The notes under the pieces were generated by a model, which was not told where the DNA came from, searched no databases, and saw only the letters and a list, made by a program, of their open reading frames with translations. The translations under genes and the position numbers were made by a program. 53,373 bases of DNA. It comes from Gaiellaceae bacterium. Lineage in GTDB: Bacteria; Actinomycetota; Thermoleophilia; Gaiellales; Gaiellaceae. Location: NCBI GenBank assembly GCA_036557145.1, contig DATBIC010000076.1, forward strand, positions 1 through 53,373, read 5' to 3'. Below are positions 9,724 through 49,106 of the stretch, piece after piece (position 1 is the stretch's first letter; each line of letters starts with the position of its first letter).

Positions 9724-10875
9724 GTGTCGTTCTCGGGAGCGATGATCCAGAACGCGATCTACATCGCGCAGCAGCCGCCCGAGTGGCCGATCTCGGTCGA
9801 CGACTGGGAGCGCGCCGCCGCCGCGCGGCTCGACCCCGGCGCCTACGGTTACATCGCGGGCGGCGCGGGCGCCGAGTCGACGATGCGCGCGAACCTGGAG
9901 GCGTTCGACCGCCACCGGATCCGCCCACGCATGCTCTCCGGCAATGTCTCGCGGAACCTGTCGGTCGACGTGCTCGGCCTGCACTCGCCCGCCCCGTTCC
10001 TGCTCGCGCCGATCGGCGTGCTCTCGATCGCGCATGAGGACGCCGAGCCCGCGGTCGGCCGTGCGAGCGCGTCGTCCGGCATTCCGATGGTCCTCTCCGG
10101 CGCCGCGACGCACTCGCTCGAGGAGGTCGCCGAGACCGGCTGCCCGCGCTGGTACCAGCTTTACTGGCCGAACGACCGCGACCTCTGCGCGAGCTTCGTC
10201 GCGCGCGCCGAGGCGGCCGGCTACACGGCGATCGTCGTCACGCTCGACACGCTGATGCTCGGCTGGCGGCCGCGCGACCTGCGCTCCGCCTATCTGCCGT
10301 TCCTGCACGGCGAGGGCTGCGGCGTCTACTTCAGCGACCCGGTCTTCCTCTCGCGGCTCGCGAAGCCGCCCACCGAGGACCCGCTCACCGCTGCCGCCAC
10401 CATGCTCATGCACTTCCCGAACCTCGGCCTGACGTGGGACGACCTCGACTGGCTGCGCAGCGCGACCTCGCTGCCGCTGCTCGTCAAGGGCGTCCTTCGC
10501 GCCGACGACGCCGAGCGGGCGCTCGAGCACGGCATCGACGGCGTGATCGTCTCGAACCACGGCGGGCGGCAGGTCGACGGTGCCGTCGCCGCGCTCGACG
10601 CGCTGGTCGAGGTCCGTGACGCGCTCCCCGACGCGGTCGTCTTGATGGACGGCGGCATCCGCTGCGGCGCCGACGTCGTGAAGGCGATCGCGCTCGGCGC
10701 CGACACCGTCCTGCTCGGCCGGCCCTACGCCTATGCGCTCGCGGTCGGAGGCCAGCGCGGCGTCGAGGAGCTGATCCAGAACCTGATGGCGGAGATCGAC
10801 CTCACCCTCGCGCTCGCCGGCGCCGAGTCCGCGCGCGCACTCGACCGCTCGTGGCTGACACCGGCGTCGTCCTGA
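9724..10875 (+). CDS. FMN-dependent alpha-hydroxy acid oxidase/dehydrogenase (lactate 2-monooxygenase/LldD family)
   Basis: 383-aa ORF with motifs YGYIAGGAG.EST, WYQLYW, IVVTLD, LLVKGV, VIVSNHGGRQVDG and GADTVLLGRPY. Confidence 0.85.
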   Translation: MSFSGAMIQNAIYIAQQPPEWPISVDDWERAAAARLDPGAYGYIAGGAGAESTMRANLEAFDRHRIRPRMLSGNVSRNLSVDVLGLHSPAPFLLAPIGVLSIAHEDAEPAVGRASASSGIPMVLSGAATHSLEEVAETGCPRWYQLYWPNDRDLCASFVARAEAAGYTAIVVTLDTLMLGWRPRDLRSAYLPFLHGEGCGVYFSDPVFLSRLAKPPTEDPLTAAATMLMHFPNLGLTWDDLDWLRSATSLPLLVKGVLRADDAERALEHGIDGVIVSNHGGRQVDGAVAALDALVEVRDALPDAVVLMDGGIRCGADVVKAIALGADTVLLGRPYAYALAVGGQRGVEELIQNLMAEIDLTLALAGAESARALDRSWLTPASS

Positions 10876-22176: not shown

Positions 22177-23175
<999 letters not shown>

Positions 23176-23180
23176 ACCCT

Positions 23181-23210
23181 CTTGGGGTCAGACCCGGGTC
23201 TGACCCCAAG
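23181..23210. repeat. 30-bp perfect palindrome, REP-like copy 1
   Basis: CTTGGGGTCAGACCCGGGTCTGACCCCAAG is self-complementary with no spacer. It starts 5 nt after the LLM stop codon. Confidence 0.9.
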
Positions 23211-23270
23211 GGTGTCCCGAGGCGTCGCACCGGTCAGGGCAAACCCGCATCGTGGGTGCGGTTTCGTGGA

Positions 23271-23300
23271 GGTGGGGTCAGACCCGGGTCTGACCCCACC
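23271..23300. repeat. 30-bp perfect palindrome, REP-like copy 2
   Basis: GGTGGGGTCAGACCCGGGTCTGACCCCACC has the same 24-bp core as copy 1. It ends 2 nt before the stop codon of the minus-strand kinase gene. Confidence 0.9.
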
Positions 23301-23302
23301 GG

Positions 23303-24328
23303 TTACGCGCCGAGCGCCTCGCGCGCGGCGGCGGCCAGCGCGGGGACGCCCTGCTCGAAGATCGCGGCGCGGGTGTCTTCCGCGCCGAGCTCGCCGCGCA
23401 CGTAGCGGCCGTAGATCGCCTCGCAGAAGACGGCCGCCTTCCACAGCGCGAGCGCCTCGAACCACGCGAGCGGGCCGAGGTCGCGGCCGCTCCGCTCCTC
23501 GTAGCGCCGGACGAGCTCCGCGCGCGACGGGAAGCCCGCGCTCGCCGTGACCGGCGACGACCCGAGCGCGCTCGGCCGCCCGCCCGGCTCGCTGTACGTC
23601 GAGAGCAGGTACCCGACGTCCGCGCGCGGATCGCCGATCGCGCCCATCTCCCAGTCGAGCGCCGCCTCGATCCGCGTCGGCTCGTCGCGCGCGACCATCA
23701 TGTTGCCGAGCCGGAAGTCGCCGTGGACGACGGTCGGCGCCAGCGGCTCCGGCAGCGCGCCCGCGAGCACCCGGCCGACCTCGTCGACGTCGGGAATCGG
23801 CCGCGTGCGGTTCACCTCCCACAGCTGCGTGAACCGCCGGACCTGCCGCTCGGCATAGCTTCCCGGCCGCGCGAACGCCGCCAGCGCGGGCACCGAGACG
23901 TCGGCCGCGTGGATCTCGACCAGCGTGTCGACGAGGTCCTCGCCGAGCCGCCGCCGCGCCGCCCGCGTCTCGAGCCTCGGCGGCAGCGACTGCGTGACGA
24001 CGTGCCCGTCGAGGTAGCGCATCAGGTAGAACGGCACGCCGAGCACGCTCGTGTCGCCGCACACGGCGACGATCTCCGGCAGCCGCTCGAAGCCGGCCGC
24101 TCGCACCGCGAGCTGCAGCCCCGCCTCGCGCACCATGTCGTGCGCCGACGGCGGCAGCGGCGGGCGCGGCGGCCGGCGCAGCACGTACCGGTCGCCGCCG
24201 CGCGTGAGCAGGAACGTGAAGTTCGAGCCGCCGCCGTCGCCGATGCGCTCCGCGGTCAGCGGCCCCGCGCCGAGCTCTTGCTCGTCGAGGAACCGTTCGA
24301 CGCGGTCGAGGACGATCAGCGGCTCCAC
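23303..24328 (-). CDS. Phosphotransferase (APH/choline-kinase fold), ACAD10/11 N-terminal-domain type
   Basis: 341-aa ORF with GGGSNFTFLL, YVLRRPP, SAHDM.REA, the catalytic VVHGDFRLGNMM and DWEMGAIGDP. Confidence 0.85.
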   Translation of the reverse strand: MEPLIVLDRVERFLDEQELGAGPLTAERIGDGGGSNFTFLLTRGGDRYVLRRPPRPPLPPSAHDMVREAGLQLAVRAAGFERLPEIVAVCGDTSVLGVPFYLMRYLDGHVVTQSLPPRLETRAARRRLGEDLVDTLVEIHAADVSVPALAAFARPGSYAERQVRRFTQLWEVNRTRPIPDVDEVGRVLAGALPEPLAPTVVHGDFRLGNMMVARDEPTRIEAALDWEMGAIGDPRADVGYLLSTYSEPGGRPSALGSSPVTASAGFPSRAELVRRYEERSGRDLGPLAWFEALALWKAAVFCEAIYGRYVRGELGAEDTRAAIFEQGVPALAAAAREALGA

Positions 24329-31289: not shown

Positions 31290-31853
31290 GTGGAGCCGCT
31301 TCGGATCGGCGTTCTCGCCCTGCAGGGCAACTTTCGCGAGCACGTGAGGATGCTGCGGGAGCTCGGCGCCGAGACGGTCGAGGTGCGCAAGCCGGAGGAG
31401 CTCGACGGGCTCGACGGGCTCGTCATTCCCGGCGGCGAGTCGACGACGTTCATGCGCCTGATGCGCCTGTACTCGCTCGACGAGGCGATCCGCCGCTTCC
31501 CCGGCGCGGTGTTCGGCACCTGCGCCGGGATGATCGTGCTGGACGGCAATCACCTCGGCCTCGTCGATCTGACCGTCCGGCGGAACGCGTTCGGGCGCCA
31601 GGTCGCATCGTTCGAGGCCGACCTCGCGATTGACGGCGAGGAGCGGCCGATCCGCGCCGTGTTCATCCGCGCGCCGTGGATCGAGGAGCTCGGAGGCGAC
31701 GTCGAGGTGCTCGCCGAGCTCGACGGCCGTCCGGTGCTCGCACGCGAGGGCCGCTTCCTGGTGGCCTCGTTTCATCCCGAGCTCACCGACGACTCGCGGC
31801 TGCACCAGTGGTTTCTCGCGATGGCGAAGGAGGAGCGGCTTGTCCGGGCATAG
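31290..31853 (+). CDS. pdxT: Pyridoxal 5'-phosphate synthase glutaminase subunit
   Basis: 187-aa ORF with GVLALQG...[12 protein letters not shown], the catalytic FGTCAGMI and SFHPELT. Confidence 0.9.
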
Positions 31854-32595
31854 CAAGTGGTCGTCGATCAAGCACAAGAAGGGCGCGGCCGACGCGAAGC
31901 GCGGCCAGCTGTTCTCGAAGCTGTCGCGCGCGATCCTCGTCGCGGCGAAGGAGGGTGGCGGCGACCCGGCCAACAACCTCGCGCTGCAGAACGCGATCGA
32001 GAAGGCGAAGTCGTATTCGATGCCGAAGGACAACATCGACCGCGCGATCGCGAAGGGCTCGGGGGCGGACGCCGACGCGGATGCGTTCGAGACGATCGTG
32101 TACGAGGGCTACGGGCCGGAGGGCGTCGCGCTGATCGTCGAGGCGCTGACCGACAACCGGAACCGGACGGCGGCCGACGTCCGCCACCTGTTCGCGAAGC
32201 ACGGCGGCAACCTCGGAGCGACGGGTGCCGTCGCGTGGCAGTTCGAGCGGCGCGGCGTCGTGGTCGTCGCGGGTGACGGCGCGGACGAGGAGGAGCTGCT
32301 GCTGGTCGCCGCGGACGCCGGCGCCGACGACGTCGAGGCAGACGGCTCGACCTTCCAGGTGACGTCGGCGCCCGAGACGCTGTCGGCGGTGCGCACGGGC
32401 GTCGAGCAGGCCGGCTTCACCGTCGAGTCGGCCGAGCTCCAGCTCGTCCCGAAGACGACCGTGTCGATCGACGACGAGGCGAAGGCGCGCCAGGTGATGC
32501 GGCTCGTCGACGCGCTCGAGGAGAACGACGACGTCCAGGACGTCTACGCGAACTTCGACATCCCCGAGCGCGTGCTGGAGGCGGTCGCGGGCTGA
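31840..32595 (+). CDS. yebC: YebC/PmpR family DNA-binding transcriptional regulator
   Basis: TTG 31840 gives the canonical N-terminus (M)[21 protein letters not shown], with AAGGAGGAG 4 nt upstream. It overlaps the pdxT end by 14 nt. Confidence 0.9.
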
Positions 32596-32630
32596 GGTGC
32601 CCCGTCCGGGTCGGCGCCTAACCTCTCTCC

Positions 32631-33198: not shown

Positions 33199-33909
33199 AT
33201 GAAGGACTGGCAGAAGTACCTCGCGGAGCTGTTCGGCACGTTCATCCTCGTGTTCACCGGGACGACGGCGATCGTCGGTGCATTCGTCCGGACCGGCGGC
33301 CTTCCGCCGCTGCTCGTCGCGCCGTTCGCGTTCGGTCTCGCGCTTCTCGCCGCGCTCTACGCGTTCGCGGAGGTCTCGGGCGGGCACTTCAACCCGGCCG
33401 TGTCGCTGGGCCTCTTCCTCGATCGGCGGATCGGCATGGTCGACCTGTTCGGCTACTGGATCGCGCAGTTCGTCGGTGCAACGCTCGCGTCGCTCGTGCT
33501 GCTCGCAGCGACCACCAAGAATCAGGTCAAGATCACGGCGACGACGCCGTCGGCCGGCAACGGCACCGCGTTCGTGATCGAGCTGGTGTTCACAGCGATC
33601 TTCGTCGCCGTCATCCTGCAGTCGTCGAAGAGCGAACGCTTCGGGGGCAGCGCGCTGATCTCGATCCCGCTGACGCTGCTCGCGATCCACTTCGCCGCGA
33701 TCCCGTTCAGCGGCTCGTCAGTGAACCCGGCGCGCACGTTCGGCCCGGCGCTCGTCGGCGACGTCTGGCACGGCTTCTGGATCTACATGATCGCCCCGCC
33801 GCTCGGCGCGATCATCGCGTGGCTCGTCCATACCGTCGTCGTCAACGGCGACCTCAATCTCGGGGCGAACCTCTCCGCGGGTGACGGGGAGCCCCAGAGC
33901 GCGGGCTAG
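33199..33909 (+). CDS. aqpZ: Aquaporin/MIP family channel
   Basis: 236-aa ORF with two NPA boxes (GGHFNPAVS, GSSVNPART) and six TM helices. GGAGGTG lies 8 nt before the ATG. Confidence 0.9.
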   Translation: MKDWQKYLAELFGTFILVFTGTTAIVGAFVRTGGLPPLLVAPFAFGLALLAALYAFAEVSGGHFNPAVSLGLFLDRRIGMVDLFGYWIAQFVGATLASLVLLAATTKNQVKITATTPSAGNGTAFVIELVFTAIFVAVILQSSKSERFGGSALISIPLTLLAIHFAAIPFSGSSVNPARTFGPALVGDVWHGFWIYMIAPPLGAIIAWLVHTVVVNGDLNLGANLSAGDGEPQSAG

Positions 33910-33925: not shown

Positions 33926-33955
33926 GAGTGCCTGGCACCTCGGTGCCAGGCACTC
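33926..33955 (+). terminator. Perfect 13-bp stem / 4-nt loop hairpin after the aquaporin gene
   Basis: GAGTGCCTGGCAC-CTCG-GTGCCAGGCACTC lies 16 nt after the stop. No T tract follows. Confidence 0.55.
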
Positions 33956-34005
33956 AGCGTCGCGCGATGAAGTAGCGTTCGCGCCGATGACAATGGTGAT
34001 GGTCC

Positions 34006-39371: not shown

Positions 39372-41249
39372 ATGGCGACCGCGACCTGGCAGATCGACCC
39401 GTGCCCGCTCGACCGGGTGCGCGAGCTCGCCGCCGCGCTGGCGCTCGACGAGGTGACGGCTTCGGTGCTGGTGCGGCGCGGATACGCGTCGTCCGAGGAC
39501 GCGCAGCGGTTCCTCGACGGCGCCTTTCCGCGCCATGACCCGTTCGCGCTCGGCGACATGCGCGAGGCGGTCGAGGCGATCCGGGCTGCCGTCGACCGCG
39601 GCGCCCGCATCTGCGTCCACGGCGACTACGACGCCGACGGCATCTGCGCCACGGCGCTCGCCGTGCTGCTGCTGCGCGAGCTCGAGGCCGACGTCGCGTG
39701 GCATCTGCCGTCGCGGTTCGAAGAGGGATACGGCCTCAACGGGCAGACGCTGAGCCGCCTCGCCGAGGAGGGCTTCGGCCTCGTGCTCACGGTCGACTGC
39801 GGCATCACCGCCGTCGCCGAGGTCGAGCACGCGCGGTCGCTCGGGCTCGACGTCGTCGTGACCGACCACCACCGACCCACGGACACGTTCCCGTCCTGCC
39901 CGGTGGTCGCGACGCTCAAGGGCTCGTACCCGTTTGCGGGGTTGTGCGGAACCGGCGTCGTCTGGAAGCTGGCCGAGGCGCTGCTCGGGCCGGATCACGC
40001 GTTCCTCGAGCGTCACCTCGACCTCGTCGCGCTCGCGACGGTCGCCGACGTCGTCCCGCTGCTCGACGAGAACCGCGCGATCGCCCGCGCAGGGCTGCGG
40101 CGGCTCGCGCAGACGGGCAAGCCGGGCTTGCGCGCGCTGATGCGCGTTGCACATGTCGACCCCGCCACCGTCGACGAGTCGGCGATCGGATTCCGTCTCG
40201 CGCCTCGCATCAACGCTTCGGGGCGGCTGTGCCGTCCCGAAGCCGCGCTCGCGCTGCTGCTCACCGAGGACGCCGAGGAGGCCGCCCGCCTGGCCGACGA
40301 GCTCGAGGCGCTGAACCGCGAGCGGCAGGTGGTCGAGGAGCGGATCCTGCGCGATGCCGTCGAGCAGATCGAGTCGTGGCCGCAGTCACGGCGGAGCCGT
40401 CGCGGCTACGTGGCGGCCGGCGAGGACTGGCACGAGGGCGTGATCGGCATCGTCGCGTCGCGGCTCGTCGAGCGCTACGGCCGTCCGGTCGTGCTGATCG
40501 CGGGCGCGGAGGGCAGCTGGAAGGGGTCGGGGCGCTCGGTGCCCGCCTTCGACCTCCATGGCGCGCTCGGAGCCTGCGCCGGCGAGCTCGAGCGCTACGG
40601 CGGGCATCGCGCCGCTGCCGGCCTGTCGATCCGGCCGGACCGGGTCGACGCGTTCGCGGCGGCGTTCGCCGCGCATGCGGACGCCGTGCTCACCGACGCC
40701 GATCTCGTCGCGTCGACGCACGTCGACGCGATCGTCCCGGGATCGAAGCTGACGCTGGGGCTCTGCGCCGAGCTGGCGCAGCTCGCGCCCTTCGGGCTCG
40801 GCAATCCGGGCGTGACGCTGCTCGTCGACGGCTGCGAGCTCGCCGATCTGCAAACGGTCGGGGACGGCAAGCACCTGCGCTTCCGGGTGCGCCAGCGCGG
40901 GCGCGACGCCGGATCGGCGATCGCGTTCGGCCGGGGCGCCGAGCTCGACCGGCTGAGACGTCCGGGACGCTACGACGTCGCCTTCCGGCTGCAGGAGAAC
41001 CGCTGGAACGGCGTCATCGCGCCGCAGCTGGTGGTGAGGCGCGTCTTCGACGCCGACGACCGCTACGACGATCTCCGCGAGTGGCTCGCCGCCGAATGGC
41101 GCGCCGGCGAGGCCGCCTGGACGCCCGAGGCGCGGGCGATCTTCGCCGAGCTGGAGCTCAGCGCGGACGGGATCCGGCGCAGCCTGCTCGAGTCTCCGAG
41201 CTTCCGGGCCCTGCTCGGCGCGCCGGCGGTACTGGCCGACGCGGCTTAG
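39372..41249 (+). CDS. recJ: Single-stranded-DNA-specific exonuclease RecJ
   Basis: 625-aa ORF with DHH motifs ICVHGDYDADG, VDCGI and VVVTDHH, plus DHHA1 GGHRAAAG. Confidence 0.9.
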   Translation: MATATWQIDPCPLDRVRELAAALALDEVTASVLVRRGYASSEDAQRFLDGAFPRHDPFALGDMREAVEAIRAAVDRGARICVHGDYDADGICATALAVLLLRELEADVAWHLPSRFEEGYGLNGQTLSRLAEEGFGLVLTVDCGITAVAEVEHARSLGLDVVVTDHHRPTDTFPSCPVVATLKGSYPFAGLCGTGVVWKLAEALLGPDHAFLERHLDLVALATVADVVPLLDENRAIARAGLRRLAQTGKPGLRALMRVAHVDPATVDESAIGFRLAPRINASGRLCRPEAALALLLTEDAEEAARLADELEALNRERQVVEERILRDAVEQIESWPQSRRSRRGYVAAGEDWHEGVIGIVASRLVERYGRPVVLIAGAEGSWKGSGRSVPAFDLHGALGACAGELERYGGHRAAAGLSIRPDRVDAFAAAFAAHADAVLTDADLVASTHVDAIVPGSKLTLGLCAELAQLAPFGLGNPGVTLLVDGCELADLQTVGDGKHLRFRVRQRGRDAGSAIAFGRGAELDRLRRPGRYDVAFRLQENRWNGVIAPQLVVRRVFDADDRYDDLREWLAAEWRAGEAAWTPEARAIFAELELSADGIRRSLLESPSFRALLGAPAVLADAA

Positions 41250-41463
41250 ACGCGGCCGATCGCGACGCGGCTGCGGCGCGGCTTGACGACCGGGCGGGTC
41301 GACGCCGCATCGAGCTCGCGCAGCATCCGCGCGATCTGGTTGAGCTTCTTGGCTTGTCTCCGACGAGCGAACACGGGTTCACTGATTCATCGTCGATCGC
41401 GAGGTTCCTGCGCATCCCACTGGCGGGGGATGGAGCGCGGAAGGCCAGGGGTACACTGGCTTC

Positions 41464-43659
41464 ATGGCTGTCCTGGAGCGGCATCAGGACCTCGTCGAGG
41501 AGCTGGTCGCCGAGGTCGCGGCGTACAAGGTCGACGTCAACCGTGCGCTGTTGACGCAGGCCTTCGACTTCGCCGCGCGTGCGCACGCCGGGCAGGTGCG
41601 CCAGTCGGGCCAGGAGTTCATCTTCCATCCGTGGGGCGTCGCCAAGATCCTCGCAGGGCTCCAGCTCGACGAGCCGACGCTGGCCGCCGCGCTGCTCCAC
41701 GACGTCGTCGAGGACACGGGCACCGACATCGACGAGGTGCGCGCAGAGTTCGGCGACGAGATCGCGCGGCTGGTCGAGGGCGTCACCAAGCTGACGCGCG
41801 TCCAGTTCCAGAGCCGCGAGCACGCGGAGGCTGAGAACTACCGGAAGCTGATCGTGGCGATGGCCGAGGACGTGCGTGTGATCTTGATCAAGCTCGCCGA
41901 CCGTCTCCACAACCTGCGCACGATCGAATACCTGGGCAAGCAGAAGCAGGTGCAGAAGGCGCGGGAAACGCTCGAGGTATACGCACCGCTCGCGCACCGG
42001 CTCGGCATCCACGCGCTCAAGTGGGAGCTCGAGGATCTCTCGTTCCAGACGCTGCATCCGCGCAAGTACGAGGAGATCAAGCAGATGGTCGCCGAGCGGC
42101 GCGCCGACCGCGAAGAGCACGTGCGCGAGGCCGCGATCGTGCTGCAGAAGGAGCTCGATAAGGTCGACATCCCGGCGGAGATCTCCGGGCGCGCGAAGCA
42201 CTTCTACTCGATCTACGACAAGATGGCGAAGAAGGGCCGCGAGTTCAACGAGATCTACGACCTGACCGCGATGCGCGTGATCGTGGAGCGGGGCGGGGAC
42301 GAGGGGACGCGCGACTGCTACGGCGCGCTCGGGTTGATCCACTCGCTGTGGAAGCCGATGCCAGGTCGCTTCAAGGACTTCATCGCGATGCCGAAGTTCA
42401 ACGGCTACCGCGCGCTGCACACCACCGTGATCGGGCCGCAGGGCAGGCCGCTCGAGATCCAGGTGCGCACGCGGGAGATGCACGAGACGGCGGAGTTCGG
42501 CGTGGCCGCGCACTGGCTGTACAAGCGCGGGGCGAAGCAGAAGGACGCCGAGTGGGTCGCCTGGGTCAAGCAGCTGATGGACGAGGGCACGGCCGACGAA
42601 GCCGACCCGCGCGAGTTCATGAAGGCGTTCCGCACCGACCTCTTCGACGAAGAGGTGCACGTGTTCACGCCGAAGGGGCAGGTAAAGACGCTCCCGGCGG
42701 GCGCGACGCCGATCGACTTCGCCTACGCCGTCCACACCGACGTCGGGCACCGCACGGTCGGCGCGAAGATCAACGGCCGGATCGTCCCGCTGCACTACCA
42801 GCTGAAGAACGGTGACTTCGTCGAGATCCTGACCTCGAAGCAGGGACGCGGGCCGTCGCGGGACTGGCTGTCGCTGGCGAAGAGCTCGCGCGCGCGGAAC
42901 AAGATCCGGCAGTGGTATTCGCGCGAGACGCGTGAGGAGACCGAGCAGAAAGGGCGCGACGCGCTCGAGCAGGCGCTGAAGGCCCAGAACCTCCCGTACG
43001 CGAAGCTGCGCGGGTCGCCGACGCTCGCGCAGGTGATCCGGGAGGTCGGCTTCAAGAAGGCGGACGACTTCTACGTCGCGCTCGGGTCGGGGAAGCTGCA
43101 GCCCGGATCGATCGTCAACAAGGTGATCCACCGCCTCAAGACGGAGCAGGTGGTCGAAGAGGCGCCGGTCGTCCGCAAGGCACCGAAGGCACGCACGGTG
43201 CAGGGCGCAGAGATGGGCGTCGCCGTGCCGGGAGTCGAGGACGTGCTCGTCCGCCTCGCGAAGTGCTGCACGCCGGTCCCCGGCGACGAGATCATCGGCT
43301 ACATCTCGCTCGGCAAGGGCATCACGATCCATCGCGCCGACTGCCCGAACGTGCGTGCGCTGCGCCGGAACCCTGAACGGCTCACGGAGGTGTCGTGGGA
43401 CGGAGCGACCGCGGCCAAGAGCTTCCGCGTGCAGATCGCCGTCGACTCGTGGGACCGCGCGAGGCTGCTCGAAGACGTCGCGAGGACGTTCGCCGAGCAC
43501 GGCGCGAACATCGTCAGCTACGTCGGGGTCGTCGAAGACCAGCTCGCGAAGAACCGCTACACGGTCGAGGTCGGCGACGTGAAGAGCCTGCGGACGCTCC
43601 TGAACTCGCTGCGCAACCTCGACGCCGTCTTCGACGCGTATCGCGTGACCCCCTCGTAG
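41464..43659 (+). CDS. relA: Bifunctional (p)ppGpp synthetase/hydrolase, RelA/SpoT (Rel) family
   Basis: 731-aa ORF with the HD hydrolase domain (HPWGVA..., LLHDVVEDT), the synthetase domain (RAKHFYSIYDKM, GYRALHT), then TGS and ACT-like C-terminal domains. Confidence 0.95.
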   Translation: MAVLERHQDLVEELVAEVAAYKVDVNRALLTQAFDFAARAHAGQVRQSGQEFIFHPWGVAKILAGLQLDEPTLAAALLHDVVEDTGTDIDEVRAEFGDEIARLVEGVTKLTRVQFQSREHAEAENYRKLIVAMAEDVRVILIKLADRLHNLRTIEYLGKQKQVQKARETLEVYAPLAHRLGIHALKWELEDLSFQTLHPRKYEEIKQMVAERRADREEHVREAAIVLQKELDKVDIPAEISGRAKHFYSIYDKMAKKGREFNEIYDLTAMRVIVERGGDEGTRDCYGALGLIHSLWKPMPGRFKDFIAMPKFNGYRALHTTVIGPQGRPLEIQVRTREMHETAEFGVAAHWLYKRGAKQKDAEWVAWVKQLMDEGTADEADPREFMKAFRTDLFDEEVHVFTPKGQVKTLPAGATPIDFAYAVHTDVGHRTVGAKINGRIVPLHYQLKNGDFVEILTSKQGRGPSRDWLSLAKSSRARNKIRQWYSRETREETEQKGRDALEQALKAQNLPYAKLRGSPTLAQVIREVGFKKADDFYVALGSGKLQPGSIVNKVIHRLKTEQVVEEAPVVRKAPKARTVQGAEMGVAVPGVEDVLVRLAKCCTPVPGDEIIGYISLGKGITIHRADCPNVRALRRNPERLTEVSWDGATAAKSFRVQIAVDSWDRARLLEDVARTFAEHGANIVSYVGVVEDQLAKNRYTVEVGDVKSLRTLLNSLRNLDAVFDAYRVTPS

Positions 43660-44438
43660 TGGAGGGCGTCGACCCGGTCGCGGCCACGGGGTTCACGGCC
43701 GCCGCGGACGTCTACGAGCGCGCCCGGCCGAGCTACCCGCCCGAGGCGATCGACTGGCTCGCCGAGCGGGTCGACCTGCGACCCGGGCGCGCGGTGGTCG
43801 ACGTCGGCGCCGGCACGGGGAAGCTCACCCGCCTGCTCGTGCCCACCGGGGCGCAGGTGATCGCGGTCGAGCCCCTTCCGGCGATGCTCGCGAAGCTCGT
43901 CGAGGCTGCGCCCGGCGCCGAGGCGCTGCTCGGCACGGCAGAGGCAATACCGCTCGAGGATGCGAGCGCGGACGTGATCACCGTGGCCCAGGCCTTCCAC
44001 TGGTTCGACCACGACCGTGCGCTGCCGGAGTTGCGGCGCGTGCTTCGCGCGGACGGCTTCCTGGTGCTGGTCTGGAACATGCGCGATCTCGACGACCCGG
44101 TGCAGGCGGCCGTGGAGGAGCTGATCGCGCCGGCACGCGCGACCGCGAACGCGCAACGCGCGGATACCTGGCGTCCGCCGCTCCAGCGCTCGCCGCGGTT
44201 CGGCCCGCTCGAGACGTGGCGGTTCCCATTCGCCCAGCAGTTCACGGCCGATGACCTCTGCGACCGTGTCCGCTCGACGTCGTTCGTGGCTGCGATGGAC
44301 GACGAGGAGCGCGAGCAGCTGCTGATCTCGGTGCGCGAGCTCGTTCGCGACGTCCCGGAGCCGTTCCCGTACCACTACGTCACCGAGATCTTCGTCGCCC
44401 CAGTCGCCGGGAGCGACGGTGCCAGGCGCCGGGGCTAG
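43659..44438 (+). CDS. Class I SAM-dependent methyltransferase
   Basis: Coding tail of ORF 43395-44438. GTG 43659 overlaps the relA TAG (TAGTG). Motif [15 protein letters not shown]. Confidence 0.8.
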   Translation: MEGVDPVAATGFTAAADVYERARPSYPPEAIDWLAERVDLRPGRAVVDVGAGTGKLTRLLVPTGAQVIAVEPLPAMLAKLVEAAPGAEALLGTAEAIPLEDASADVITVAQAFHWFDHDRALPELRRVLRADGFLVLVWNMRDLDDPVQAAVEELIAPARATANAQRADTWRPPLQRSPRFGPLETWRFPFAQQFTADDLCDRVRSTSFVAAMDDEEREQLLISVRELVRDVPEPFPYHYVTEIFVAPVAGSDGARRRG

Positions 44439-44893
44439 GCGCCGCTGTCGAACGCCGCGATCCGCTCGCGGAAGGCGTCGGGCACGGGCACGGGCCGTCG
44501 GCCGGCGAGGTCGATCAGCACGAGCGTCTGCTTCGCGGTCGCCATCAGGAGCTCGCCGGCGCCCGTCTCGTCGTCGTCCACGCGATACGCAGCGTGGTCG
44601 TACGTGATGCTCGTCGTCCCGATGCGCTCGACGCGCACGAAGACCTCGAGCAGGTCGTCGAACCGTGCCGGTGCGTGGTATTCGACGTTCGACGCGCGCA
44701 TCGCGAAGTCGGCCTGGCCGAGGTGCACGCGACCCAGGTGGCGGTGGAACTCGGTCCGTGCGAGGTCGAAGTACGGCATGTACCGGCCGTAGTAGACGAC
44801 GCCCTGCGCGTCCGTCTCGGAGAAGCCGACGCGCAGATGTGCGGCGTAGCGGAACGGCGGCTTGCGGTCGGTGACGTGCCCGAGCTCGATCAC
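44435..44893 (-). CDS. Acyl-CoA thioesterase (4HBT/YbgC hotdog family)
   Basis: 152-aa ORF. RVGFSETDAQGVVYYGRYMPYFDLARTEF is the family N-terminal signature. Confidence 0.85.
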   Translation of the reverse strand: MIELGHVTDRKPPFRYAAHLRVGFSETDAQGVVYYGRYMPYFDLARTEFHRHLGRVHLGQADFAMRASNVEYHAPARFDDLLEVFVRVERIGTTSITYDHAAYRVDDDETGAGELLMATAKQTLVLIDLAGRRPVPVPDAFRERIAAFDSGA

Positions 44894-45022
44894 GCGGCGA
44901 TCGTAGGCGAGCGGACGGTCGGCGCCGATCGGTGCCAGGCGCCGTCACAAAAGTGCGACAAGCCTCCCACAGTCCCTGAAAGGCCGATGCGCCACGGCTG
45001 TCGACCACCTACTCTCGACGGC

Positions 45023-45604
45023 ATGGCCCGACGCATCCGAATCGAGATCCCGGGTGCGTCGTACCATGTGACGGCGCGTGGGAATGATCGTCAGCGCATC
45101 TATTTCGGGAACTGGAGCGGGAGGCTCTTCGTCCGTGAGCTCGATCGGGCGGCCCTGCGCTACGGCTGGCGCGTCTTCGCGTACTGCTTGATGACGAACC
45201 ACTACCACATGGTTCTGCAGATCGGCGATCGTGGCCTCTCGCATGGGATGTGCGAGCTGAACGGCCGGTTCGCCCGCGCTACGAACTGGGTGAACCGCCG
45301 TACCGACCATGTGTTCGGCAAGCGCTTCTACGATCGCGTCGTCGACACCGACGAGCACTGGGAGGAGGTGTGCCGCTACGTCATGCTCAATCCCGTGCGG
45401 AGCTCGGCCGGCTGCCGCGACCCCCGCCAATGGCGCTGGAGCAGCCTTCGGCCGACCCTCGGTCTCGAGCATCCGCCGGCATGTCTCGATGTCGGCGAGG
45501 TCCTCGGCCGATTCGGAGGAGATCCGCGTCGTGCACGGGAGAGCCTCTGGAGGTTCCTACGGGAAGGGATGGCACCCGCGACGGCGCCAGGCACCGGGAT
45601 GTGA
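45023..45604 (+). CDS. REP-associated tyrosine transposase (RAYT)/IS200-like Y1 transposase homologue, solitary
   Basis: Coding tail of ORF 44594-45604 from ATG 45023. Motifs YHVTARGNDRQRIY, the HUH motif LMTNHYHMVL and the Tyr motif CRYVMLNPVR. No IS ends or tnpB are present. Confidence 0.8.
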   Translation: MARRIRIEIPGASYHVTARGNDRQRIYFGNWSGRLFVRELDRAALRYGWRVFAYCLMTNHYHMVLQIGDRGLSHGMCELNGRFARATNWVNRRTDHVFGKRFYDRVVDTDEHWEEVCRYVMLNPVRSSAGCRDPRQWRWSSLRPTLGLEHPPACLDVGEVLGRFGGDPRRARESLWRFLREGMAPATAPGTGM

Positions 45605-45613
45605 CCGTCGCGC

Positions 45614-46951
45614 TCAGCCGCGGATGACCGCGAGAACCTCGTCGCGCTTGCCCTGCATCTGCTCCTGCGAGCGCGCCTCGAGGTTCAGCCGCAGCAGCGG
45701 CTCCGTGTTCGACGGCCGTACGTTGAAGTGCCAGGCACCGGCGGTCACCGACAGCCCGTCGAGGTGCGAGACGTCGCCCTCCGGCCCGAAGCGCTCCTCG
45801 AGCCGCGCCAGCGTCGCAGCGACATCGGACACGGGCGTGTTGATCTCGCCTGTGATGAAGTACCGCTCGCGGAAGCTGCGCAGCACGTCGCTCAGCTTCC
45901 CCCGCCGCGAGACGAGCTCGCACATCAGCAGGAACGGGACGACGCCCGAGTCGGCCTGCGAGAAGTCGCGGAAGTAGTAGTGCGCGGACACCTCGCCGGC
46001 GAAGACGGCGTCGACCTCCCGCATCAGCTGCTTGATGAACGCGTGGCCGACGCGGCTCACGACCGGCACGCCGCCGGCCTGCTCGATCGCCTCCGGCACT
46101 GCCCACGACGCGCGGACGTCGTAGATCACCTTCCCGCCGGGCTCGCGTTCGAGGATCGTCTCGGCGAACAGCGCCGTGGTGAAGTCGCCGGGGACGAACT
46201 CGCCCGTGTCGTCGACGAAGAAGCAACGGTCGGCGTCGCCGTCGAACGCGACGCCGAAGTCGGCGCCGGCGCGCGTCTTGGCGACGATGAACTCGCGGTT
46301 CTCCGGGAGCAGCGGGTTCGGCTCGTGGTTCGGAAAGTTCCCGTCCGGCTCGAAGTAGCAGCGCTCGACGTCGAGCATCGGCAACCGCGCCAGCACCGGC
46401 GGCAGCATCGTCCCGCCCATCCCGTTGGCCGCGTCGATCACCAGACGCAAGGGTCGGATCGCGTCGACGTCGACGAACGAGAGCACGCGGTCGACGAAAG
46501 CGCCCCAGATGTCCTCGTCGCGGATCTCGCCGCGGCGCGCCTCGCGCCAATCCCCGGCAAGCGCACGATCGCGGATCTCGAGCAGGCCGGAGTCGCCGCC
46601 GACGGGGAGCGCACCCGCGCGCACGATCTTCATCCCCGCGTACTCCTTGGGGTTGTGCGAGGCAGTGACGGCGATGCCGCCGTCCAGCGCCAGTTCGCCG
46701 ACCGCGAAGTAGACCATCTCGGTGCCGACCAGCCCGAGGTCGAGCACGTCTGCGCCGGCGTCGGCCGCGCCGTCGCGGACGGCCTGCGCGACCGACGGCG
46801 AAGACAGCCGCATGTCGCGGCCGACGGCGATGCGCCGTGGCTCGAACTGCTCGACGTACGCGCGCCCGATCGCGTAGGCGCCGGCCTCGTCGAGCTCCGA
46901 GGGGTAGACGCCGCGGACGTCGTAGGCCTTGAAGATCTCCGGCGCGAGCAC
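45614..46951 (-). CDS. Phosphomannomutase/phosphoglucomutase
   Basis: Coding part of ORF 45614-47185 from GTG 46951 (VLAPEIFKAYDVRG). Active-site motif TASHNPKEYAG and metal motif FDGDADR. Confidence 0.9.
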   Translation of the reverse strand: MLAPEIFKAYDVRGVYPSELDEAGAYAIGRAYVEQFEPRRIAVGRDMRLSSPSVAQAVRDGAADAGADVLDLGLVGTEMVYFAVGELALDGGIAVTASHNPKEYAGMKIVRAGALPVGGDSGLLEIRDRALAGDWREARRGEIRDEDIWGAFVDRVLSFVDVDAIRPLRLVIDAANGMGGTMLPPVLARLPMLDVERCYFEPDGNFPNHEPNPLLPENREFIVAKTRAGADFGVAFDGDADRCFFVDDTGEFVPGDFTTALFAETILEREPGGKVIYDVRASWAVPEAIEQAGGVPVVSRVGHAFIKQLMREVDAVFAGEVSAHYYFRDFSQADSGVVPFLLMCELVSRRGKLSDVLRSFRERYFITGEINTPVSDVAATLARLEERFGPEGDVSHLDGLSVTAGAWHFNVRPSNTEPLLRLNLEARSQEQMQGKRDEVLAVIRG

Positions 46952-47050
46952 GCATTGACGATAACGGCGAAGGCCCGGGGAGGTCTTGTGACGACCGCCG
47001 CGAACCTGCAAGACTGAAGGCTGCAGGCAACCAGACAAGGGGACGCTCAG

Positions 47051-47569
47051 TTGGACAAGATCAACGAACTCTCGCTCGGCAAGAAGCTGGTCTTGGGCGC
47101 AGGCGTACTGCTCCTGATCGACACGTTCCTGCACTGGCAGGAAGTGACCGCATTCGGATTCACCGGCGGCCAGAGCGCCTGGCACGGCTTCTGGGGCGTG
47201 CTGCTCGGGCTGATGACCGTCGCCCTCGTCGTGTGGGTCGCGGTGCGCACGTTCGCAAACGTCCAGCTACCGGAAGGGATCCCCGACGGCCTGATCTCGC
47301 TGGTGCTCGGCGCGCTGATCCTGCTCTTCGCCGTGATCAAGGTGATCAGCGACGACTTCGTCCACTGGCCCGCCTATCTCGGGATCATCCTCGCCGCCGT
47401 CGTGACGTACGGCGCCTGGCTCGTGTTCAAGGAGAGCGGTGAGTCGTTCCCGGCGATGCCCGCCAGGGCAGGCGGGACGTCGTCCGCCGCAGCGTCGACA
47501 CCGCCGCCCGCAACGCCGCCTGCACCAGAGCCGCCGGCCGCACCGCCGGAGGACGAGCCGAGCGCCTAG
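47051..47569 (+). CDS. Hypothetical membrane protein with a Pro/Ala-rich C-terminal tail
   Basis: 172-aa ORF with a TTG start, four hydrophobic helices and the tail STPPPATPPAPEPPAAPPEDEPSA. Confidence 0.6.
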   Translation: MDKINELSLGKKLVLGAGVLLLIDTFLHWQEVTAFGFTGGQSAWHGFWGVLLGLMTVALVVWVAVRTFANVQLPEGIPDGLISLVLGALILLFAVIKVISDDFVHWPAYLGIILAAVVTYGAWLVFKESGESFPAMPARAGGTSSAAASTPPPATPPAPEPPAAPPEDEPSA

Positions 47570-48384
47570 CCCGTCTCGAGAATCGAGCGAATCGCCTCCG
47601 TCGAGCCCGGATCGGGCGACTCGGAGATCACCGTCGCCGGCCGCGCGAAGCCGGCGAGGGCATCGCGCAACGGCTCGGCTCTGAGCGTCCCGTCGCCGTA
47701 GGGCAGATGCTTCGTCTCGTTGCGGTTCGCGAACTGGATGTCGGAGAAGTGAACGTGGAAAGGGGCGCCGGGCTCGAGCACGGAGTCGGCCTGCTCGAGC
47801 GCGGCGGCGAACGGCTCGACCGTCGTGTACGCCCCGTCCGAGGTCGCGTGCATGTGCGCGAAGTCGAGAACGGGCCGCACCCACTCGACGCGCGACGCGA
47901 TCTCGATGACGTCGTCGAGCGAGCCGAGCTCGCGCACACGCCCCATCACCTCGATCCCGAACGGGACGGCGCGTCCCTTGCCCTCGAGGCGGACGCGGAG
48001 CTCGCCGAGCTGCTCGCAGACGGCATCGATCGCCTCTTCGCGCGTCCGCCCGAGCAGGAAGCCCGGATGGAAGACGACGAGCTCCGCTCCGGCCGCGACC
48101 GCGATCCCGGCGGAGTGGTCGAGCATGCCGACCGCCATGTTGAGCTTCTTGCCGCGCTCGGCATGGCCCATGAAGCCCGCGATCGGCGCATGGACGCTGA
48201 GCGCGATGTCGTGCTCGCGGCAGAGCGCCCCGAATGCCTCGGCGAATGCGTAGTCCATCCAGAAGCGCCCCTCGAAGTCGATCTCGCAGGCCGAGTGGCC
48301 GTGCTCGCTGAGCGCTGCGACCGCCACCTCGGGCGAATCGCGCGCCGGGACCCGAGCGGGGCCGAAGTGAAGACGGCGGGCCAT
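47566..48384 (-). CDS. Xylose isomerase-like TIM-barrel protein (AP endonuclease family 2 / sugar phosphate isomerase-epimerase fold)
   Basis: Coding part of ORF 47566-48639 from ATG 48384 (MARRLHFGP). It shows the alternating beta-alpha pattern with His/Glu ligand motifs (LSVHAP, VVFHPG, FGIEVMG, DFAHMHA). Confidence 0.7.
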   Translation of the reverse strand: MARRLHFGPARVPARDSPEVAVAALSEHGHSACEIDFEGRFWMDYAFAEAFGALCREHDIALSVHAPIAGFMGHAERGKKLNMAVGMLDHSAGIAVAAGAELVVFHPGFLLGRTREEAIDAVCEQLGELRVRLEGKGRAVPFGIEVMGRVRELGSLDDVIEIASRVEWVRPVLDFAHMHATSDGAYTTVEPFAAALEQADSVLEPGAPFHVHFSDIQFANRNETKHLPYGDGTLRAEPLRDALAGFARPATVISESPDPGSTEAIRSILETG

Positions 48385-48444
48385 CGTCGCGGGCCTCAGC
48401 GTAACGGCGGGGGTCCGTCCGATCCCGTTCCTACCCTTTTCGTC

Positions 48445-48690
48445 ATGCCCACGCATCCGTCTCGTATCGATCTGCTCGAGCTCGACATCGACCTGAGGCT
48501 CGCCGACCTCTGGCGCGAGGCCGCCGGCATCAGCGAGTGGACGCTCGACGTGGTGGCCGCGTTCATGCGGGCCGCGTACGGCAAGGGGTATTGCGACGCG
48601 TTGACCGAGGAGCTGCCCGGCTCGCTCTGCGCGGAGCACGGCTACCGGGTCCCGGGACGCAGACCCCAGCCTGCTTCCGCCGACGCATAG
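48445..48690 (+). CDS. Hypothetical protein (81 aa) immediately upstream of ccmE
   Basis: ATG 48445 in the frame of ORF 47707-48690, with TACCCT plus a 7-nt spacer upstream. No family is recognised. Confidence 0.45.
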   Translation: MPTHPSRIDLLELDIDLRLADLWREAAGISEWTLDVVAAFMRAAYGKGYCDALTEELPGSLCAEHGYRVPGRRPQPASADA

Positions 48691-48704
48691 CTAGACTCAC
48701 GCCC

Positions 48705-49106
48705 GTGACCTCGCGCAGCCCTGCGCGGCTGATCGTCGCCCTCGCAGTCGCGGCCGTCCTCGCGATCTTCCTGCTCTACACGGCGATCGCCGGCAAGTCG
48801 ACGCCGCAGTTCAGCCCGAGCCAGCTCCAGGGTCATCCGGGGGTCGCGTCGGTCGTCGGCGTCGTCGTCGGGCCCGTCACGGGGGACTCGCACACGGCGC
48901 GTGGCCTGCGCTTCGGCCTCCGCGACCGCGGCACCGCGAAGGGAGCCGTCGTGCCGGTCGTCTACCACGGCGACAGCCCACCGCCGCTGTTCAAGGCGAC
49001 GCGCGAGGTCGTGGTGACAGGCAGGTACGCCGACGGGCGCATCGACGGCACGGGGATCGTGACGAAGTGCCCGTCGAAGTACACCGCCTCTTCGCCGAAG
49101 GCGTAA
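48705..49106 (+). CDS. ccmE: Cytochrome c maturation haem chaperone CcmE, variant with CxxxY instead of HxxxY
   Basis: Coding tail of ORF 48537-49106 from GTG 48705. N-terminal TM anchor, OB-fold-like body (FGLRDRG....VPVVYHGDSPPPLFK..REVVVTG) and C-terminal motif TKCPSKY (49068-49082). Confidence 0.8.
   Translation: MTSRSPARLIVALAVAAVLAIFLLYTAIAGKSTPQFSPSQLQGHPGVASVVGVVVGPVTGDSHTARGLRFGLRDRGTAKGAVVPVVYHGDSPPPLFKATREVVVTGRYADGRIDGTGIVTKCPSKYTASSPKA

Follow-up and report, generated by a model that had tools for sequence, protein, structure and literature searches.

The window analyzed here is a stretch of 53,373 bp (53 kb) that makes up an entire contig of a Gaiellaceae bacterium. Two convergent genes meet in it, a luciferase-like monooxygenase (LLM) gene on the plus strand (22177-23175, Bac_luciferase 259.6 bits) and an APH-family phosphotransferase gene on the minus strand (23303-24328), and their 3' ends adjoin two palindromes, copy 1 (23181-23210, CTTGGGGTCAGACCCGGGTCTGACCCCAAG) and copy 2 (23271-23300, GGTGGGGTCAGACCCGGGTCTGACCCCACC), respectively. 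Each palindrome is 30 bp long, perfectly self-complementary, and of zero spacer. They have the 24-mer GGGGTCAGACCCGGGTCTGACCCC in common (23184-23207 and 23274-23297) and lie 90 bp apart from center to center. Copy 1 begins 5 nt past the TGA (23173-23175) of the LLM gene, while the stop codon of the APH gene, a TTA on the plus strand (23303-23305), is found 2 nt beyond copy 2. The original prediction had described the pair in the same way; the two palindromes and their shared core were re-read as predicted, and the ORF coordinates agree with the distances given to both stop codons. The inner spacer (23211-23270) is locus-specific, lies outside the repeat, and holds a third, imperfect hairpin (AAACCCGCA-N7-TGCGGTTT, 23241-23264), which is as previously described with one bulged C.

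As single-stranded DNA (ssDNA), either 30-mer adopts a hairpin with 13 bp in the stem and 4 nt in the loop, with energies of -14.0 and -14.9 kcal/mol and z-scores of -5.3 and -4.7, and zero shuffled sequences fold equally well. A palindrome of 20-40 bp with a stable stem-loop, which is one of the marks of a REP element, is therefore present twice. A long-range helix of 26 bp can also form between the two copies. Being perfect palindromes they have no orientation, and the Y/Z typing used for BIMEs is inapplicable to them. The absence of a T tract on either strand at the palindromes, another point of the original prediction, was confirmed, and a scan for promoter and terminator consensus sequences returned nothing, with zero terminator-like sites. 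Of the two parts of an intrinsic (Rho-independent) terminator, the G+C-rich hairpin is present and the U tract is absent, so that neither copy classifies as one. An Rfam scan of positions 22900-23600 (E up to 10) gave sub-threshold noise from miRNA models only. The LLM protein sequence had no exact match on record.

The motif forms one cluster within the window. Allowing up to three mismatches, the 24-mer matches the window twice vs 0 matches in 100 dinucleotide shuffles, and the 12-mer half-site, with up to one mismatch, has no further occurrence in the window.

Dispersal, placement, and history of the palindrome

A dispersed repeat family had been preferred over two independently evolved terminators in the original prediction, with the reservation that the core might occur only here. 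This reservation can be dropped, as the core is widespread in both metagenome and genome collections. The exact loop-less 24-mer was found in at least 120 metagenome contigs, which among the matches listed are mostly from soil or wetland and have a G+C content of 0.65-0.73, and GGGGTCAGACCC-N(0-20)-GGGTCTGACCCC was found in at least 120 stretches of the genome collection. Among the genome matches listed, the 12-bp stem spans about 11 phyla, namely Pseudomonadota (Oxalobacteraceae, Alcaligenaceae, Halomonas, and Hyphomicrobiaceae), Bacillota (Lachnospiraceae), Actinomycetota (Gaiellaceae and Thermoleophilia), Planctomycetota, Acidobacteriota (Vicinamibacterales), Gemmatimonadota (Gemmatimonadaceae), Myxococcota, Desulfobacterota, Elusimicrobiota, Omnitrophota, and Patescibacteria. 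The stem is identical between these matches and the loops and flanks vary; in most of the phyla a loop of 2-20 nt parts the arms, which are themselves embedded in longer stems.

Since any G+C-rich stem might recur often in so large a database, controls were run in the viral collection. In the viral contigs the true stem gave 24 stretches vs one for the A/T-swapped stem, and three composition-matched permuted stems gave 0, 0, and 0, so that the stem is specifically enriched and its enrichment is specific to the orientation of the arms. Mobility of the palindrome is shown by the relative L217, with 77% nucleotide identity to window positions 31581-32588, where a 24-mer directly follows the yebC stop codon and the window has no copy.

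Self-complementarity continues into the flanks for 2 bp or more in 40% of 126 unique copies. The commonest flanking 4-mers in this set are AAAA, CCCC, and GACC, and neither GTAG nor CGTC is conserved beside the core. The tag at one end by which many REPs are recognized (GTAG or CGTC, PMC3733652) is hence missing, and the GGTGG of copy 2, previously read as a REP-like head, does not hold up as such.

Two known repeats were also considered as identities of the motif, that is, the inverted repeats of the Tn3 family, which we take to begin with GGGGTCTGAC, and the Neisseria DNA uptake sequence, presumably GCCGTCTGAA. Each shares only 6-9 nt with it and nothing else fits, and both were rejected.

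The position of the copies relative to genes was analyzed by calling frame and strand on either side from codon-phase G+C periodicity, for 200 elements and, as controls, for 4268 positions picked at random from the contigs of these elements. Only 11.5% of the elements lie in a continuous reading frame (intragenic) compared with 47% of the random positions, whereas convergent junctions account for 20% of the elements and 3% of the random positions, and divergent junctions for 1% and 3%, respectively. The extragenic bias that was asked for in the original prediction is clearly seen in these figures. The placement is the classical REP distribution, extragenic at gene 3' ends and convergent junctions, and is found family-wide as well as in the window, where the pair lies between convergent stop codons. 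The occupation of many non-orthologous sites, which is likewise typical of REPs, is also observed.

The definition of REPs further includes a number of more than 100 copies per genome (PMC2817692). In about 160 kb from relatives of the window, the motif is found only in the orthologous APH-LLM spacer and at the flanks of a RAYT gene (RAYT-2, see below), so the copies probably number in the tens per genome rather than above 100 as for classical REPs, and copy number is probably low. A rough estimate of about 10-20 perfect copies per genome may be drawn from the fraction of unique perfect copies that abut a RAYT gene (9/126).

The convergent APH-LLM pair is syntenic in four related loci (L270-L273), whose APH proteins are 83-91% identical to that of the window, and 4/4 of these loci have a motif pair whose copies lie at either end of the spacer, adjoining the stop codons. 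The interior of the spacer has diverged with large indels. The full spacer measures 127 bp in the window vs 188-213 bp in the relatives, the spacing of the pair is 90 bp vs 139-180 bp, and the inner spacer of the window is homologous to that of the relatives, strongly diverged and shortened. The third hairpin (23241-23264) is unconserved in the orthologous spacers and was excluded from the element for this reason.

Both copies of a genome always carry one common variant in the window and in L270-L273. The perfect 24-mer is the variant of the window and L272, a direct-tandem T-to-A variant (GGGGTCAGACCCGGGTCAGACCCC) is that of L271 and L273, with a third unit in one L273 copy, and L270 carries GTGGTCTGACCGCGGTCAGAC(C), in which the A/T order is swapped and the outer bases are changed. 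What is invariant across these orthologous variants is GGTCNGACC at 11-bp spacing. The direct-tandem variant puts an A-A mismatch into the hairpin and takes its energy from about -14 to -9.3 kcal/mol; since the doublets of L271 and L273 hold this mismatch, a perfect hairpin appears not to be strictly required. The co-variation of the copies within each genome is concerted evolution, by gene conversion or enzyme-mediated homogenization, and, along with the conserved position, speaks for a maintained pair and against a recent insertion. The pair seems to be old, as judged from the orthologous loci, and would have been present at both spacer ends before the L270-L273 relatives diverged.

RAYT genes and their repeats

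Every ORF up to 2 kb from a copy, in about 265 loci, was included in an all-against-all clustering. Families that recur near the copies as background are SDR, ABC, LysR, histidine kinase, peptidase S9, and MacB/FtsX, and one recurrent set of related phage structural genes was treated as background as well.

The sole recurrent family in these loci that is neither generic and abundant nor phage structural is the IS200-like Y1 transposase (RAYT), and the clustering gave no DNA-binding protein family other than RAYT that recurs beside the copies. Using tblastn, Y1_Tnp homologues were identified in 10/264 motif-selected loci (1.59 Mb), and 9/10 of these RAYT genes are within 115 bp of a palindrome copy. 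One or two RAYT genes are expected per multi-megabase genome. The palindrome is found on both sides of the RAYT gene in L209, L250, L262, L093 (Halomonas getboli), L274, L275, and L276, and on one side in L154, L211, L091, L221, and L224; in L209, L250, and L221 the stop codon of the RAYT gene is the TGA within the downstream palindrome. Two RAYT clades with about 31% mutual identity bear the identical stem. The arrangement of REP systems, in which the repeat brackets a RAYT gene, is thus found in relatives, outside the window. Co-occurrence with RAYT genes had been raised as a point to check, and the copies directly flank such genes, close relatives included.

The RAYT of this kind found in Gaiellaceae, RAYT-2, has opcA on one side and an inositol monophosphatase gene on the other in relatives of the window. 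A perfect 24-mer precedes its annotated start by about 75-90 nt, and its 3' end carries GGGGTCAGACCCGGGTCAGACCCC. One motif-flanked RAYT-2 gene (P0273) shares a 2.2-Mb contig with the syntenic APH-LLM locus L271, and another, also motif-flanked (P0272), shares an assembly with L273.

The only Y1 gene in the window is a different one, RAYT-1 (45023-45604, plus strand). Its HUH motif (HYH) and Tyr motif (RYVMLNPVR) are intact, and it scores 28.4 bits with Y1_Tnp (PF01797, cut-off 23) and 77.5 bits with the NCBIfam model NF047646 (REP_Tyr_transpos), slightly below the cut-off of 80, so that Y1 HUH fold, motifs, and model scores all mark it as a RAYT. Its homologues are named "REP element-mobilizing transposase RayT" by JGI and "transposase [Gaiellaceae bacterium]" elsewhere. 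A PDB sequence search with RAYT-1 (E up to 0.01) gave zero matches. The gene order around it (RelA, methyltransferase, 4HBT thioesterase, RAYT, PGM, AP endonuclease, CcmE) is kept in the window, in its 99.8%-identical twin contig L121, and in L267, L268, and L269, with the methyltransferase absent in L268, and the RAYT-1 protein is 57-84% identical in L267-L269. A single copy in a conserved neighborhood, which is characteristic of RAYT genes, is what these loci display.

GGTGCCWGGCRCC flanks RAYT-1 in 5/5 loci; the upstream copy lies 56-92 nt from the annotated start and the second one 10-25 nt ahead of the stop, and GGGGTCAGACCC is absent within 10 kb of RAYT-1 in the 4/4 other loci (L121 and L267-L269). 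There are three exact GGTGCCWGGCRCC matches in the window, all about 600 bp or less from RAYT-1. The near-palindrome of 13 bp GGTGCCAGGCGCC (44931-44943) has its first base 92 nt upstream of the RAYT-1 start, and GGCGCCAGGCACC, as upstream of the gene, lies inside its 3' end (45583-45595); both are kept in 5/5 loci. At 33927-33954, between convergent ORFs, two RAYT-1-type units form an inverted doublet (AGTGCCTGGCACCtcGGTGCCAGGCACT), which represents a second REP family in the window. Doublets of this family (REP-1) had 0 matches in the viral contigs in both orientations.

The hairpin units are GGTGCCWGGCACC for the RAYT-1 type and GGGGTCWGACCCC for the RAYT-2 type, to which the APH-LLM palindromes belong. 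As read from the sequences, the unit motifs GGGGTCAGACCCC and GGTGCCAGGCACC are two palindrome-preserving pair swaps apart, with G:C changed to T:A at positions 3/11 and T:A changed to C:G at positions 5/9 in going from GGGGTCAGACCCC to GGTGCCAGGCACC.

Of the claims made or implied for 45023-45604, that of a RAYT homologue stands and that of a partner of the palindromes very probably does not, as a different palindrome flanks RAYT-1 in 5/5 loci. RAYT-2, by its flanking repeats, is the likely partner of the pair at the APH-LLM site, and this gene is located outside the window, which is a complete 53,373-bp contig with one Y1 gene.

Interpretation and rival explanations

The evidence supports the two palindromes being copies of a dispersed, REP-like, RAYT-linked family and not two local terminators. 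The full explanation, in which they belong to a REP family with RAYT-2 as its partner outside the window and form an old, maintained pair, is in our judgment quite likely to be correct. The REP unit would be the 13-nt near-palindrome GGGGTC(A/T)GACCCC, and two such units, inverted and without a loop, would make up a 24-mer core (GGGGTCWGACCC doublets). By analogy with E. coli TnpA_REP, from which binding and cutting of ssDNA hairpins are taken (PMC3479197, PMC8266576), RAYT-2 as an IS200-like Y1/HUH tyrosine transposase would bind and cut the hairpin on ssDNA, and its cutting may seed copies at extragenic sites and homogenize them. In 3' UTRs, an influence of REPs on mRNA decay and on termination has been proposed (10.64898/2026.03.23.713779). 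Judging from their position and from E. coli REP biology, the palindromes would form a G+C-rich hairpin in the 3' part of the LLM and of the APH transcript, immediately past the stop codon, and this hairpin might serve as a U-tract-less terminator or as a barrier to 3' exonucleases.

Four other explanations were weighed. Mobilization by the window's own RAYT (45023-45604) would have in its favor an intact RAYT-type protein, with the model scores and motifs given above and 36-39% identity to the motif-flanked RAYTs, and cross-recognition by RAYT-1 is conceivable with only two symmetrical pair swaps between GGTGCCAGGCACC and GGGGTCAGACCCC. The flanks of RAYT-1, however, are GGTGCCWGGCRCC and never GGGGTCAGACCC in 5/5 loci, and GGGGTCAGACCC flanks another RAYT in the same genomes, which makes this explanation unlikely. 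It is also possible to regard the element as primarily a site on double-stranded DNA (dsDNA), consisting of 11-bp-phased GGTC-N-GACC palindromes for a dimeric protein, with the hairpin being incidental. This would fit the invariance of GGTCNGACC at 11-bp spacing among the orthologous variants, the direct-tandem doublets and triplets in L271 and L273, and the arrays of degenerate 11-nt units found beside some cores (L259, L176, L205, L216, and L218). A protein-binding site of this kind is hard to reconcile with copies located at gene 3' ends and avoiding the divergent spacers that bear promoters, with the asymmetry of arm orientation (24 vs 1 for the A/T-swapped stem), or with the 2-20 nt loops inside longer stems in most phyla, which fit a hairpin among the matches listed; and RAYT is the only putative DNA-binding family that recurs beside the copies. 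Binding of the duplex survives at a low probability, because the direct-tandem variants need no perfect hairpin, and we consider it decidedly unlikely.

Another way to read the locus is to take the entire 120-bp block (copy 1, spacer, and copy 2) as one mobile REPIN or MITE, given its identical terminal palindromes, their ability to pair in the 26-bp helix, and the recurrence of pairs with spacings of 41-44 bp in metagenome contigs, among the matches listed. Against this, the inner spacer is locus-specific, homologous to the orthologous spacers only, variable in length (60 to about 145 nt), and repeated nowhere else in the sequences compared, and the inner sequences of other pairs all differ. 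The dispersed doublet is the single 24-mer, in which the 12-mer is inverted with a zero-length spacer, and the 120-bp block with its spacer is unrepeated; we consider a mobile block very improbable. Finally, two intrinsic terminators could have evolved locally for the convergent genes without any repeat-family biology, which would be in line with their location immediately past both stop codons, their stable G+C-rich stems, and their conserved position in the relatives. The identical 24-mer, however, recurs at hundreds of unrelated sites and beside RAYT genes, the U tract is absent, and both copies co-vary within each genome, leaving hardly any probability for this account.

Returning to the REP family with RAYT-2 as its partner, a broader proposal would be that the stem GGGGTC(A/T)GACCCC is pan-bacterial and untagged in about 11 phyla, and that a Gaiellaceae RAYT duplicate re-specified its repeat by two compensatory swaps (GGGGTCAGACCCC to GGTGCCAGGCACC). 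We put this forward tentatively, as something that may be true but is at present rather doubtful. Conservation of the stem across phyla, if true, would mean either that one RAYT lineage has kept an ancient DNA specificity or that a RAYT-REP pair has spread horizontally, and would challenge the view of REPs as lineage-specific and vertically inherited. The two paralogues, with their own 13-nt near-palindromes two pair swaps apart, offer a natural system for the study of the code by which Y1/HUH enzymes recognize hairpins. For the window itself the gain in annotation is modest, namely two REP copies as putative 3'-end hairpins of convergent genes.

Comparison with known systems

Searching the literature by the motif string and its sub-strings (12-, 11-, and 9-mers) returned coincidences with eukaryotic or viral primers only and no bacterial paper, and no description of REPs for Gaiellaceae was found in this way. 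The motif is absent from the main texts of the REP/RAYT papers. The present case extends REP-RAYT systems to Gaiellaceae (Thermoleophilia, Actinomycetota).

The closest comparison is with the REP/BIME elements of E. coli and their TnpA_REP (YafM). In both, short G+C-rich extragenic palindromes are located at gene 3' ends and are often paired, and a single-copy IS200-like Y1/HUH gene is flanked by its own repeat (PMC2817692, PMC3479197, PMC8266576). Whereas the REPs of E. coli are imperfect stem-loops, the Gaiellaceae palindrome is perfect and loop-less, without a GTAG tag or an orientation, and it is probably present in tens and not hundreds per genome, in an actinomycetotal host.

The REPIN-RAYT systems of Pseudomonas are similar in having several RAYT paralogues per genome, each with its own repeat family, and in vertical inheritance at a fixed syntenic location and doublets of inverted units (PMC3116915, PMC5581495). 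They differ from the present case, in which the doublet spacer is of zero length and the 12-bp stem is found in many phyla and is not confined to one lineage. The flanking 16-mers of RAYTs occur 12-14 times for Group 1 and Group 4 and 57-140 times for Group 2 and Group 3 (PMC5581495), and the abundance of the Gaiellaceae repeat, as roughly estimated, resembles the former two groups and not the latter (PMC5581495).

The repeats tagged with GTAG or CGTC (Di Nocera et al. 2013, PMC3733652) are also short intergenic stem-loops, some of which are RAYT-linked, but the Gaiellaceae repeat has neither tag; the main text of PMC3733652 makes no mention of Actinobacteria. The subterminal hairpins of IS200/IS605 are comparable in that they bracket a Y1 HUH gene and recognition on ssDNA is expected, but in contrast to IS200/IS605, the RAYT is single-copy and syntenic, and the hairpins alone are dispersed. 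In high-G+C actinobacteria, terminators without a U tract ("I-shaped") consist of a hairpin without a T tract and have individually evolved sequences. The Gaiellaceae palindromes share with these terminators a G+C-rich hairpin directly past the stop codon and without a T tract, and are distinguished from them as identical copies of a dispersed, RAYT-linked family. Taken together, this is a REP-RAYT system of known type, in Gaiellaceae.

A second repeat motif at RAYT-1 and at 33927-33954

The RAYT gene of the window (RAYT-1, an IS200-like Y1 transposase gene at 45023-45604 on the plus strand) is bracketed by a second 13-bp near-palindrome, GGTGCCWGGCRCC, in all five loci compared, namely the window, its twin contig L121 and the RAYT-1 loci of three relatives (L267, L268, and L269). 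The window is itself a complete contig of 53,373 bp, the length listed for the longest contig in the cluster record of its APH protein. L121 is a 10-kb contig from the JGI metagenome 3300036835 with 99.78% identity to window positions 39504-49513. Across the five loci, the upstream copy lies ~56-92 nt before the annotated RAYT-1 start and the downstream copy 10-25 nt ahead of the stop; the corresponding window positions are 44931-44943 and, at the 3' end of the gene, 45583-45595. A third copy is found at the MT/4HBT convergent junction (44418-44430). When up to one mismatch is allowed, the motif occurs at seven window sites, that is, 14 strand matches vs 2.4 expected.

Two units of the RAYT-1-type motif, placed in inverted orientation, make up the 28-nt perfect palindrome AGTGCCTGGCACCtcGGTGCCAGGCACT at 33927-33954, which has a folding energy of -14.5 kcal/mol as single-stranded DNA and is flanked by the stop codons of a convergent ORF pair (plus strand, 33907-33909; minus strand, 33954-33956). 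This palindrome is a second REP family within the window.

The unit motif of the 24-mer palindrome, GGGGTCAGACCCC (23184-23196), and that of RAYT-1, GGTGCCAGGCACC (44931-44943), share the pattern GGnGnCWGnCnCC, and their sole difference is two symmetrical, compensatory pair swaps. It looks as if two RAYT paralogues and their repeats had diverged in concert.

The 24-mer at RAYT-2 and yebC

In some genes of RAYT-2, the paralogue outside the window, the stop codon is a TGA inside the downstream palindrome (L209 1226-1249, L250 1995-2018, and L221 346-369), with the protein ending in ...RGQTRV. Relatives with a T-to-A direct-tandem variant (10560-10583 in both L274 and L275) have lost this stop, and their RAYT-2 ORF is ~35 nt longer.

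Another relative carries the 24-mer directly 3' of yebC (L217 1063-1086). At the window counterpart (32596-32620), the yebC-ruvC spacer sequence ggtgccccgtccgggtcggcgcc shares 14 of the core's 24 nucleotides, and it may be a decayed copy of the 24-mer or a chance resemblance.

Stems on phage contigs and in longer hairpins

The identical 12-bp stem, with gca or tgc loops, is also present on related phage contigs from IMG/VR with a G+C content of ~0.7 (L123, L127, L129, L130, L131, L135, L137, and L144), whose genes include portal, prohead protease, head-tail connector, and tail completion. There it is intergenic and adjoins short tandem repeats of 7-8 nt (eg, ctactcc and cgaatgg). Locus L140 and the twin contig L121 share a source sample, metagenome 3300036835.

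Elsewhere, some cores have arrays of degenerate 11-nt repeats on either side, the unit being GGGGTCARACY to the left and its complement to the right, with 11-bp phasing (L259 at 1730, L176, L205, L216, and L218), and the hairpin is a component of 50-60-bp tandem arrays in L057 (3164-3291) and L086 (4613-4737). In Oxalobacteraceae/Pseudomonadota loci (L003, L022, L026, L029, L039, L045, L055, L078, and L111, among others), the 12-bp stem with a 2-4-nt loop caps a larger imperfect hairpin (~60-70 nt), the outer arms of which vary by lineage while the stem is conserved. These long hairpins are REPIN- or MITE-like in architecture.
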